Shown piece by piece: positions 29,647 through 42,684 of a stretch of DNA of 64,000 nt (its first letter is position 1; every line of letters starts with the position of its first letter). Source of the DNA: Longimicrobiales bacterium (GTDB lineage Bacteria > Gemmatimonadota > Gemmatimonadetes > Longimicrobiales > Gaopeijiaceae); contig OZ242008.1 in the NCBI GenBank assembly GCA_965204735.1, positions 1,312,001 to 1,376,000 on the forward strand, in the 5' to 3' direction. The translations under genes were made by a program, and so were the position numbers. The notes under the pieces were generated by a model. The model was not told the origin of the DNA. It saw only the letters and a list, made by a program, of their open reading frames with translations, and searched no databases.

Positions 29647-32178
29647 ATGATCTCCAAGAAGATACGCCATCGCATCGCTCGGTCGAGGTTGCTCGCCGCG
29701 TTGGTGCTTGCAGCGTGCGTCGTCGTCGGCTCCTCGACCCGCGCACGGGCGGCGCCGCAGGCCGAGGCCGAGATTCTTCGGCAGGTCCAGACGATGTCCA
29801 ACGACGAGATCGTTCGGCAGCTCATCGCATCGGGGCTCACGAGAGCCGAGGTGAGAGACCAACTCAACAGGCTCGGGTACGACCCTTACTTGGCGGACCA
29901 GTACTTCGACGCCATCGCGCAAGGGTCGAGGCTCCCAGGCACTGCGGAGGAGCGGTCGCTGGACGCGTTTCGGCTGCTTGGGATCCTCCAGGCGGATTCG
30001 GCGGGTGTGCTGTCGGGACGTTTCACTAGGCCGGGGGTCGTCGATGCGGCAGCGGACTCGCTCGACGCGGCGGACGCCCCCGGAGCAGAGTCGACCCCGG
30101 TTTTCGGAGAAGGGGTGTTCTCCCATCGGTCCGGTCGCTTCGACCCGTTTCTTCCGGGGCCGGTGGGCGACGACTACGTGCTAGGTTCGGGCGATGTGGT
30201 TTCCCTGGTGCTCACGGGCGATGTCGAGCGAATCCATGAGCGGCTGACCGTGGGCCGAAGCGGAGAGATCTTCATTCCCGACGTAGGGTTGGTGGGTGTG
30301 CAGGGCCGCACCTTGGGAGAGCTGAGGGACATCCTCTACTCCCGCTTGGGCCGAGTATACAGCGGTGTCCGTCGAGAGGACGGGGCGACGACCCAGTTTA
30401 CTGTTTCGGTAGCAACCCTTCGGGCGATTCAGGTGCGGGTCCTCGGAGAGGTTGTTCAGCCCGGCGCGTACCTGATGAGTTCGGTCGGCTCGCTGTTGCA
30501 AGCCCTGTACTTCGCCGGCGGCCCGACCGACGACGGCACCTACCGCAAGTTGCTGCTCAACCGCGCCGGGGAAGACCCGGTGGAAGTCGATCTCTACCCG
30601 TACTTGACCGCCGGGAGCACTGCCGGAGATCCTCGCATGCAGTCCGGAGACGTCGTCTTCGTGCCACCGGTGGGCAAGCAAGTGACCATACGGGGCGGCG
30701 TGCGCAGGGCGGCGACTTATGAGCTCGCGGAGGGCGAAGGATTGCGGGAGCTGATCCGACTTGCAGGAGGACTCCTGCCCCATGCGAGCACTGATCAGGT
30801 CCAGATCGACCGAATACTGCCGTCGGCGGAGAGATCGCCGGGGGTTGAGCGGATTACCGTGAACGCGCCGTTGGACTCGGTGCTCGCCGGTACGCATTCA
30901 GTCGACCTGACTGCCGGAGACGTCATATGGGTGTTCTCGGTGTCGACGCCGGTACGGAATCAGGTGACCCTGCGCGGCGCCGGCTCGAGACGGCCGGGTG
31001 CGTACCAACTGCTGCCGGGAATGACGGTGGGGATGTTGGTCGAACGAAGCGGCGGCTTTGTCGACAGCGCTGAACGCGAACGCATTCGCGTGTTTCGAAT
31101 CGATAGGCTGACCGACGAGCATGTCCTGTACACGCCCAACGCACCGCTTGATCTGGAGTTGCAGGATGGAGACGTGATAGAAGTATACGTGTACTCCGAT
31201 TTCATCGTGCAGGATTCCATCGACGTGTTCGGTTTCGTCCGCATTCCCGGCAGGTACGTTCTGTTTCAAGGCATGACGGCAGACGATGCTGTCCTCGCTG
31301 CTGGCGGCTTGACGTCGGACGCCGAGATACAGGATGTCGAGATTGTAAGGCCGTCGGGGGATGGCAGCACTATGGAATCGGTCTCCCTTAGAGTCAGCCT
31401 CGGCGAGGAGTTCAACAGAGACGGCCAGTCGACCGACGAGTCCGGGTACTCCTCGAACATGGTTTCCGCAGCCGAAGTCGTACTTGAACCTGGAGACAGA
31501 ATCTTTGTTCGCAGGGACCCCACGACCCTAACGGCGGGCCTTGTGTCGCTTGGCGGCGAGCTGGTCAGGCCCGGCGATTATGCTCTGCTCCGGCAGGGCG
31601 AGCGCTTGTCGTCGCTACTTGGTCGCGGGGGAGGCCTCGCGCTGCGAGCGAACGCCGCCGGCATTCAGCTGAAGAGACAAGGGATCTTGGTCGCGGTCGA
31701 CTACAGCGAAGCGACGGGGTTTTCTGGCTCGCCGGGGGATCCGGTGTTGCAGCCGGGAGATTCCATATACGTTCCCGTGTTGGACAACACAGTAACGGTG
31801 GGTGGCAGCGTGAACTTTCCAAGCCGAACGGTCTACACGACCGGCCTGACCGTAGAGGATGCGCTGGCAGCGGCCGGAGGCACGACCGACGATGCCGACT
31901 TGGGACGAACCAGCGTGACCTACGCGAACGGGAACAGGGCGACCGTCGGGAAGGTGCTGGGGCTCTTCCGGACCTACCCGGAGGTGGAGCCGGGGAGCAG
32001 CATCTTTGTGCCGATCAAGGATGCGGATGCCGGCGTCGATTGGCCGCAGGCGCTGGGGACGACGGCCACTGTCCTTCAGGCCGTGGCTGTCAACGTCATC
32101 GCCATCCTGAGCCTGGTGCGGACCAACGACTCCCAGCAGCAGCAACCCCCGGATGATCCCGAGTCCCAAGGCGACTAG
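29647..32178 (+). CDS. Wza/KpsD-like polysaccharide export protein with multiple SLBB domains
   Basis: DYVLGSGD...GEIFIPDVG; repeated V.GEV..PG.Y...AGG...L..GD.I.V units. Confidence 0.88.
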   Translation: MISKKIRHRIARSRLLAALVLAACVVVGSSTRARAAPQAEAEILRQVQTMSNDEIVRQLIASGLTRAEVRDQLNRLGYDPYLADQYFDAIAQGSRLPGTAEERSLDAFRLLGILQADSAGVLSGRFTRPGVVDAAADSLDAADAPGAESTPVFGEGVFSHRSGRFDPFLPGPVGDDYVLGSGDVVSLVLTGDVERIHERLTVGRSGEIFIPDVGLVGVQGRTLGELRDILYSRLGRVYSGVRREDGATTQFTVSVATLRAIQVRVLGEVVQPGAYLMSSVGSLLQALYFAGGPTDDGTYRKLLLNRAGEDPVEVDLYPYLTAGSTAGDPRMQSGDVVFVPPVGKQVTIRGGVRRAATYELAEGEGLRELIRLAGGLLPHASTDQVQIDRILPSAERSPGVERITVNAPLDSVLAGTHSVDLTAGDVIWVFSVSTPVRNQVTLRGAGSRRPGAYQLLPGMTVGMLVERSGGFVDSAERERIRVFRIDRLTDEHVLYTPNAPLDLELQDGDVIEVYVYSDFIVQDSIDVFGFVRIPGRYVLFQGMTADDAVLAAGGLTSDAEIQDVEIVRPSGDGSTMESVSLRVSLGEEFNRDGQSTDESGYSSNMVSAAEVVLEPGDRIFVRRDPTTLTAGLVSLGGELVRPGDYALLRQGERLSSLLGRGGGLALRANAAGIQLKRQGILVAVDYSEATGFSGSPGDPVLQPGDSIYVPVLDNTVTVGGSVNFPSRTVYTTGLTVEDALAAAGGTTDDADLGRTSVTYANGNRATVGKVLGLFRTYPEVEPGSSIFVPIKDADAGVDWPQALGTTATVLQAVAVNVIAILSLVRTNDSQQQQPPDDPESQGD

Positions 32179-42684: not shown

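Follow-up and report, generated by a model that had tools for sequence, protein, structure and literature searches.

A run of nine genes in the genome of a Longimicrobiales bacterium (Gemmatimonadota) raises the question of whether enzymes for an ornithine-lipid-like membrane lipid and a set of membrane-bound electron-transfer proteins form one system. The genes, numbered here g1 to g9, lie on the minus strand at 32175..42684 of the window, the whole 64,000-nucleotide stretch analysed (contig OZ242008.1, assembly GCA_965204735.1, positions 1,312,001 to 1,376,000 of the forward strand). Two modules are recognized: a redox cassette (g3 to g6) built around an MsrQ-like cytochrome b/Rieske protein, and a lipid arm (g7 to g9) of OlsB-like and OlsA-like acyltransferases and an alpha/beta-hydrolase-DedA-ATP-grasp fusion. 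The reading put forward here, to which an even chance is assigned, is that the lipid arm produces an amide-extended, flipped and remodelled aminolipid and that the cassette is an optional outward electron conduit serving this pathway.

Linkage and co-inheritance of the two modules

Neighbourhoods were mapped with profiles in two sets of loci: 80 genome loci with g9 as anchor, the best of 576 confirmed, and 80 metagenome loci with g6 as anchor, the best of 585. The cassette, an OlsB- or OlsF-like gene and g9 share one locus in 22 of the 80 genome loci, and these are titled Gemmatimonadota, Acidobacteriota, Gammaproteobacteria, Bacteroidota and Planctomycetota. Six relative arrangements, tandem, convergent and swapped ones among them, are found over the 42 loci with both g6 and an ATP-grasp gene. 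Thirteen of the g6-anchored metagenome loci have flanks of at least 8 kb; a lipid-arm gene is present in nine and absent from four.

Co-inheritance was followed in 700 whole genomes, comprising 200 Gemmatimonadota and samples from the phyla of an Acidobacteriota metagenome-assembled genome (MAG; 150 genomes), a 'Bacteroidetes' MAG (200) and a Planctomycetota MAG (150). Proteobacteria are not among these four phyla, and the centre genomes (G000, G232, G233, G234) are excluded from the counts. Also not counted as cassette carriers are 17 Acidobacteriota genomes and G637, which match only the second half of g6; none of these has the ATP-grasp gene. Among the Gemmatimonadota, ATP-grasp is found in 23 genomes, g6 in 22 and an OlsB-like gene in 30, and all 22 g6 genomes have both partners. 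The Acidobacteriota sample (ATP-grasp 16, full-length g6 10, OlsB-like 26) has ATP-grasp in 10/10 g6 genomes, as does the 'Bacteroidetes' sample (ATP-grasp 48, g6 10), where all ten cases are unlinked. For the Planctomycetota sample (ATP-grasp 18, full-length g6 13) the figure is 11/13. In total, ATP-grasp is present in 53 of 55 cassette genomes, against a background of 105/700. The association holds even where cassette and ATP-grasp gene lie 0.4-1.6 Mb apart; in six cases of the Bacteroidota sample both are on one contig, separated by 0.4-1.5 Mb. Genomes with ATP-grasp also carry an OlsB/F-like gene, in 23/23 Gemmatimonadota and 15/16 of the Acidobacteriota sample. Hypergeometric values are at most 3e-7 per phylum, with kin treated as independent.

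Since 52 of the 105 ATP-grasp genomes lack the cassette, it is best regarded as an optional add-on whose dependence on the lipid arm runs one way. An earlier note on this DNA had made linkage of olsBA, the fusion gene and the Rieske module in other genomes a check on its proposal; these genes prove to be linked and co-inherited far beyond close kin.

Layout of the operon

The nine open reading frames have no internal stops, and their third codon positions are uniformly rich in G + C (GC3 0.85-0.92). Junctions from g1 to g9 are, in order, +10, +10, -4, -4, -4, -4, -26 and -4 bp. Gene order, coordinates and all eight junctions (five 4-bp overlaps, one 26-bp overlap and two 10-bp gaps) are exactly as the earlier note had described them, and the domain assignments of the nine proteins are upheld by Pfam and NCBIfam scans. 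The start codons that create the overlaps match those of homologues. By a crude count, a 4-bp overlap is possible at 73 of 852 close same-strand reading-frame pairs genome-wide (8.6%); its occurrence at 5/8 operon junctions has P ~2e-4 against this rate, which rests on rough gene calls. A sigma-70-like promoter, a terminator excess and Rfam matches were sought and none was detected. From the layout, the nine genes are predicted to form one operon.

The host genome consists of one contig of 4.14 Mb. All nine genes recur, with their order unchanged, in two of three further genomes of the genus; in the third (92% complete), the fusion, the OlsB-like gene, the ligase and the symporter gave no match.

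The redox cassette

The order g3-g4-g5-g6 is invariant. The first gene is upstream of g5 in 61/61 loci with enough flank, and g5 immediately precedes g6 in 86/86. A 92-amino-acid membrane protein with two helices is encoded by g3 (38882..39160). It has no Pfam family, no family is common to more than three of 34 members, and residues G20, D36, P52, W58 and P59 are invariant. Alignment and a model (predicted local distance difference test, pLDDT, 84) suggest that g4 (38394..38885) consists of an N-terminal anchor helix, with invariant R6 and H9, and an outer beta-sandwich. A fold search gave only generic Greek-key/beta-sandwich matches (best Z 8.3, root-mean-square deviation 3.7, 102 aligned). 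A DM13-like identity was also considered and found no support in Pfam. The beta-sandwich is dispensable, the anchor alone remaining in several loci, and in locus L051 g3 is fused to the g4 anchor; such shrinkage and fusion are expected of small subunits.

The central protein, g5 (37222..38397), joins an MsrQ-like six-helix cytochrome b domain (PF01794) to a C-terminal Rieske [2Fe-2S] ferredoxin (PF00355). Invariant in 42 sequences are R84, R85, H86, H98, H107, H162, H178, H191 and H220 and, in the Rieske motif, C288, H290, C307 and H310. Compared with the families in PMC3591440, the ferric reductase domain shows the YedZ/MsrQ pattern, with Arg for the first heme His and three canonical His. 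An Arg-Arg pair present in g5 appears, by motif spacing, to correspond to the pair that binds flavin mononucleotide (FMN) in MsrQ (PMC12525009). In MsrQ the electrons run from cytoplasm to periplasm. Unlike MsrPQ, g5 has a fused Rieske ferredoxin and four extra invariant His, and the molybdo-enzyme MsrP is absent beside it; its partners are instead a Cys/His oligonucleotide/oligosaccharide-binding (OB) fold protein and two small membrane subunits. Combinations of the ferric reductase domain with Rieske domains are listed in PMC3591440, and the g3-g6 cassette does not appear in the passages of that paper examined. A dual Sec-Tat route of export for the Rieske domain (PMC5449189) was weighed and rejected, as the last helix is not preceded by a twin-arginine motif and is followed by Arg-rich sequence.

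The product of g6 (36470..37225) is modelled as an anchor helix followed by two OB folds (pLDDT 90). C162, H175, C178 and C182 are invariant, and the motif Cys-x12-His-x2-Cys-x3-Cys is present in 148/148 new library representatives. The family is large (1355 representatives at 50% identity, E<=1e-30). Fold searches returned generic OB folds (best Z 7.1), and the ESM Atlas places g6 in unnamed clusters only. At E<=1, 10 of 54 family members give a hit to DUF5818 (PF19135), the strongest at 0.0027; the g6 of the window is not one of the ten. In 17 genomes of the Acidobacteriota sample there are small stand-alone proteins (e.g. at G312:C6:16759-17043) that match g6 in its second OB domain, the one bearing the Cys/His site, and nowhere else. 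These are mostly open frames of 115-160 amino acids, occur without ATP-grasp and are possibly related to DUF5818.

Contact between g5 and g6 is suggested by fusions and by modelling. Complete g5-g6 fusions make up 4 of the 148 g6 representatives; these were revealed by the g6 profile search, and a weak search aimed at longer g5 fusions gave none. In the fusions the Rieske domain comes before the g6 anchor and the OB folds after it, which would place them on opposite sides of the membrane. A model of the g5-g6 complex scores 0.76 against 0.01 for the best control. The mark is reached by 116/157 solved complexes and 2/215 mismatched pairs, a calibration that is rough because own alignments were used and heme rode along. 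At least 80% of contacts are common to the model runs, and partner pLDDT is at least 82. In the modelled interface, residues 165-185 of g6 rest on two loops of g5, 105-126, with the invariant H107, and 195-208. The interface contains zero Rieske residues, and the Cys/His site of g6 and the Rieske domain are at opposite faces. The model thus supports g5-g6 binding, and very probably the four cassette proteins form one trans-membrane redox complex.

Candidate electron donors are found next to the cassette elsewhere. A Rieske-fused thiamine pyrophosphate (TPP) enzyme or a Rieske-fused, glutamate-synthase-like FMN gene adjoins it in 7/20 fetched unlinked regions, one of the seven carrying half of g6 only, and it is plausible that these enzymes deliver electrons to it. 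Both kinds of fusion look uncharacterised; they recur beside the cassette at L242, L249, L250, L251, L254, L256, L260, L026, L043, L097 and L182.

The lipid arm

The OlsB-like N-acyltransferase g7 (35640..36473) matches the PF13444 GNAT domain at E 1.7e-27 and is the only PF13444 gene of the genome. Its top NCBIfam match is OlsB, at 120 and 116 bits (cut-offs 350 and 320). The O-acyltransferase g8 (34787..35665) scores 124 bits with the OlsA models (cut-off 300), against 82 bits with the PlsC model. It is assigned as OlsA-like on a PF01553 domain bearing HxxxxD at 102 (with FPExT at 171), on its pairing with olsB and on its distinction from PlsC, a PlsC-like paralogue being present elsewhere in the genome. 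An N-acyltransferase with PF13444 followed by an O-acyltransferase with PF01553 is likewise the arrangement of OlsB/OlsA and of OlsF (GlsBA and GluB variants). That g7 would acylate an amino acid is suggested by family, the substrates of OlsB, ornithine and 3-hydroxyacyl-ACP, being candidates.

The fusion protein g9 (32175..34790) comprises 871 amino acids and has at least 2240 homologues. In its hydrolase domain, S153 is found in 40/40 rows with a residue there and H284 in 38/39. The DedA/VTT domain (PF09335) is above cut-off, and E356, D357, D389, R437 and R443 are conserved in 44/44 sequences; the acidic and Arg residues agree with those expected of a lipid flippase of this family. The ATP-grasp domain was not detected by a Pfam scan of the whole protein. 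It is recognized by profile: 29/32 family members match RimK-like ATP-grasp at E<=0.1, and cyanophycin and glutathione synthetases are the best PDB matches (E 1e-9 to 5e-6). K631, R784, D786, E804 and N806 are conserved in 44/44 sequences, and by analogy with D-Ala-D-Ala ligase these would bind nucleotide and metal. The same catalytic residue set is found in CphA1/CphA2 and GshAB/GshF; unlike these, g9 has a single ATP-grasp tethered to DedA and hydrolase domains, with no Mur-ligase or glutamate-cysteine ligase domain. An Arg-rich stretch past the last helix places the ATP-grasp inside. The hydrolase is probably on the outer face, a placement based on a weak N-terminal anchor that a hydropathy scan missed. 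In Paracoccus denitrificans PD1222 the three domains are encoded by three adjacent genes, PDEN_RS24485, RS25810 and RS24475.

Genes for OlsB- or OlsF-like enzymes accompany g9 closely. Of 42 loci that extend 8 kb or more to both sides, 30 have one no farther than 10 kb from g9, and in 37/57 one lies on the same strand, up to 4.5 kb upstream. In Bacteroidota regions the fused g9 comes after olsB-olsA in 10/10. In eight loci, some in other phyla, long OlsF-like proteins stand in for OlsBA (the five examined score 371-423 bits against the OlsF model); g9 therefore tracks the function and not one gene. An apparent OlsA-g9 fusion, P0023, was discounted because its linker is frameshift-like. In soil-type metagenome loci (L104-L180), DedA and ATP-grasp are separate genes, olsB is convergent on g6 and olsA is absent from the locus. 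A short-chain dehydrogenase/reductase (SDR) gene precedes g3 in 33/80 g6-anchored loci.

Cells using MprF with periplasmic hydrolase partners combine an inner synthase, a membrane flippase and an outer hydrolase. The same make-flip-trim logic is displayed by g9. It differs in that its presumed acceptor would be an aminolipid and not phosphatidylglycerol, and in using ATP-grasp and not aminoacyl-tRNA chemistry; neither the aminoacyl-tRNA transferase nor the flippase domain of MprF has a Pfam match on g9. The whole system can be likened to OlsBA with an MprF-style make-flip-trim unit and an MsrQ-style conduit, and it falls outside MprF, MsrPQ and OlsC/D/E as classes.

The amide formation envisaged for g9 is of a type already known on ornithine lipids. 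The transfer of taurine to the ornithine-lipid carboxyl that gives cerilipin is an ATP-dependent amidation whose gene has been unidentified since the 1970s (PMC12971839). The cerilipin producer belongs to the same family as Komagataeibacter, whose plasmids carry ATP-grasp homologues; the one viewed from Komagataeibacter is not flanked by lipid genes. That 2026 review lists five ornithine-lipid modifications and does not mention ATP-grasp, DedA, Rieske proteins or a flippase. The tailoring enzymes known so far are hydroxylases, of the Fe/2-oxoglutarate or di-iron type, and one methyltransferase, and OlsI is an alpha/beta-hydrolase acting as an O-acyltransferase. Taken together, synthesis of an extended aminolipid by the lipid arm appears reasonably likely.

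Proposed pathway

The steps outlined here start from the observed genes, their linkage, co-inheritance, conserved residues and fusions, and from modelled g5-g6 contact and sidedness; the chemistry is drawn from protein families. An amino acid would be N-acylated by g7 and the product O-acylated by g8, giving an acyloxyacyl aminolipid. The cytoplasmic ATP-grasp of g9 would activate the free head-group carboxyl and add a second amino acid or an amine, its DedA domain would flip the extended lipid, and its Ser hydrolase, probably at the outer face, would trim or re-acylate it. The g3, g4, g5 and g6 proteins would assemble as one membrane complex in which low-potential electrons leave the Rieske cluster on the cytoplasmic side, cross by way of heme b and arrive at the outer Cys3/His site of g6. 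MsrQ homology, topology and the neighbouring Rieske-fused dehydrogenase-like genes point to this outward direction. Because the dependence runs from the conduit to the lipid arm and not the other way, the conduit's most likely role is to reduce or regenerate the exported product, or else an enzyme that works on this product. Direct action on the lipid itself is rated as less likely than not.

The earlier note had the lipid modified by redox chemistry. The domains of the redox module are confirmed; an oxygenation of the OlsC/D/E kind is weakened, since the module is built as a conduit from the cytoplasm to the outside and no oxygenase catalytic domain (mononuclear-iron, 2-oxoglutarate or di-iron) was matched on the nine proteins by Pfam or NCBIfam, the Rieske cluster domain aside. 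The architectures of g3, g4 and g6 are unrelated to OlsC/D/E or to Rieske oxygenase catalytic domains.

A more specific idea, quite unlikely as it stands, is that the product is a redox-active, membrane-anchored molecule, e.g. a thiol-extended aminolipid serving as the lipid equivalent of glutathione or mycothiol. DinB proteins have a thiol-transferase role, and TANGO2 has an amidase fold. In such a scheme DedA would flip the lipid outward, the lipid would be the transferase substrate of the DinB-like protein found in other clusters, the hydrolase or a TANGO2/NRDE amidase would free spent conjugates, and g3-g6 would be a dedicated trans-membrane reductase. The one-way cassette dependence (53/55) would then be explained, as would the thiol/redox bias of the accessory genes (DinB, DoxX, the YHS selenoprotein family and AhpC/TSA).

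Points against the pathway, and alternatives

Several observations weigh against a lipid pathway with its own electron conduit. Both g7 and g8 differ from OlsB/OlsA in scores far below the curated equivalog cut-offs; as the OlsB models are lineage-narrow, this only lowers membership for g7. The co-occurrence statistics are overstated because genomes within a phylum are related. The 52 ATP-grasp genomes without g6 have their counterpart in two genomes (G603, G695) that have a complete-length cassette and in which no ATP-grasp was found. Neither the Rieske-fused donor candidates nor, by profile search, the DinB, NRDE, DoxX and YHS accessory genes were found in the host genome. A complete g3-g6 set on a plasmid of Rhizobium leguminosarum WSM1689 (L266:2074-4318) adjoins not lipid genes but an SDR gene on one side and, on the other, an extracytoplasmic function (ECF) sigma/NrsF pair and a chlorite-dismutase-family gene; its locus tags are RLEG3_RS31985-31995. 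Two Rhizobium plasmids in all carry the cassette without lipid genes; g5 was detected there by hidden Markov model, although tblastn with g5 against plasmids at 1e-30 gave zero matches. Stand-alone ATP-grasp genes in Bacteroidota have YHS, DoxX, DinB, NRDE and LysE genes as neighbours and olsB within 8 kb in 0/10 sampled regions, and the plasmid homologues viewed in Paracoccus, Azospirillum, Salinivibrio and Komagataeibacter are without adjacent olsB. In the g6 of L266, Lys replaces the Arg after the motif His and the three Cys are kept.

The points concerning the cassette would fit an alternative in which the two modules are chemically separate responses to envelope stress, namely an aminolipid arm and a periplasmic reductase of MsrPQ/DsbD type, whose substrates would be damaged proteins, thiols or metal ions, travelling together under selection by the same stress. 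The distance of the cassette from the lipid arm in 10/10 Bacteroidota cases, its position beside Rieske-fused TPP/FMN oxidoreductase-like genes in the 7/20 unlinked regions, the stress-regulator genes in Rhizobium and the two genomes with cassette alone are all consistent with this. Such a separation is nevertheless considered somewhat unlikely. One-way nesting in four phyla appears tighter than shared stress usually gives, the host genome already owns a separate MsrPQ-like pair (PF00174-PF01794, at 3.338 Mb), and the operon kept the cassette while DinB, NRDE, DoxX and YHS were lost.

The stand-alone homologues bear on a second alternative, in which the ATP-grasp does not extend an OlsBA lipid but couples an amino acid with a free fatty acid, or produces a small soluble peptide for export, olsBA being convenient neighbours. 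N-acylation by an ATP-grasp enzyme has a precedent in acyl-histidine (PMC11631085), and the ten Bacteroidota regions that lack olsB include five with LysE exporters. This is unlikely for the fused protein, which follows olsB-olsA throughout the Bacteroidota regions and recruits OlsF-like genes elsewhere, whose DedA and lipase-type domains indicate a lipid, and whose nearest solved relatives extend peptide carboxyls. Extension of the OlsBA lipid by g9 is thus preferred.

The upstream ligase and symporter

The first two genes encode an acyl-CoA ligase, malonyl-CoA synthetase-like (g1, 40732..42684; PF00501/PF13193), and a sodium:solute symporter (g2, 39171..40721; PF00474). They adjoin the cluster in 4/80 and 3/80 fusion-anchored genome loci, respectively, every one Gemmatimonadota, and in none of 64 loci from other phyla. 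They also occur apart from it: in genome G008 (100% complete) g1 and g2 stand together with no other cluster gene beside them, and in close kin inserts of 3.4-4 kb part the pair from the cluster. In genome G194, g1-g2 are followed directly by olsB and the cassette is missing. The two genes are passengers, family-level neighbours outside the conserved core, as the earlier note had allowed; its suggestion that the operon imports and activates a substrate is not supported. Restriction to Gemmatimonadota and presence without the cluster indicate that they mark an insertion site in one family, the core being g3-g9. A nine-gene pathway, with import of the substrate by g2, its activation by g1 and oxidative tailoring of the lipid by a cytoplasmic Rieske module, is very unlikely. 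The 10-bp gaps that join g1 and g2 to the other genes, both in this genome and in two congeners, and their place before olsB in G194 speak for it; the 0/64 count, the inserts, G008 and the lack of a detected oxygenase domain speak against it.

Long stretches of low complexity are inserted at several places in g1, among them a short direct repeat near 42500-42440; its homologues in congeners have ~530 codons, compared with 650 here.

Significance

In the open literature, subscription papers and supplements being outside its scope, no description of the ATP-grasp fusion family or of the cassette was found. The ATP-grasp family (105/700) and the cassette (55/700) are distributed over the four phyla sampled. 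The first represents a candidate enzyme class for aminolipid head-group extension with a candidate flippase, and the second is probably a new four-subunit MsrQ-like electron conduit, judged in part from a modelled interface. Their pairing in several phyla points to undescribed lipid chemistry. Parts of the system are present in the cultured strains Paracoccus denitrificans PD1222 and Rhizobium leguminosarum WSM1689. The TANGO2/NRDE homologue in the clusters of other genomes would give a human disease family a bacterial pathway context.

Accessory and flanking genes

Genes for DinB-like (48/80), TANGO2/NRDE (40/80), DoxX-like (17/80) and YHS (7/80) proteins are found in g9 loci. As the profiles found none of these common accessories in the host genome, the operon is taken to be a reduced form that kept the cassette. 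A recurrent Bacteroidota unit (L224, L226-L231) has the order YHS-DoxX-DinB-NRDE(TANGO2)-ATP-grasp. A LysE exporter often accompanies it and an AhpC/TSA gene sometimes does; neither olsB nor the cassette is close by.

Upstream of the operon, on the opposite strand, an open reading frame region at 43919-45330 (+) displays four CxxCH motifs and is a probable multiheme cytochrome c. At the other end, Wzz-like and Poly_export/SLBB polysaccharide export genes of lower GC (0.63) at 28451-32178 (+) converge on g9, and the stop codons of the export gene and g9 overlap at 32175-32178.

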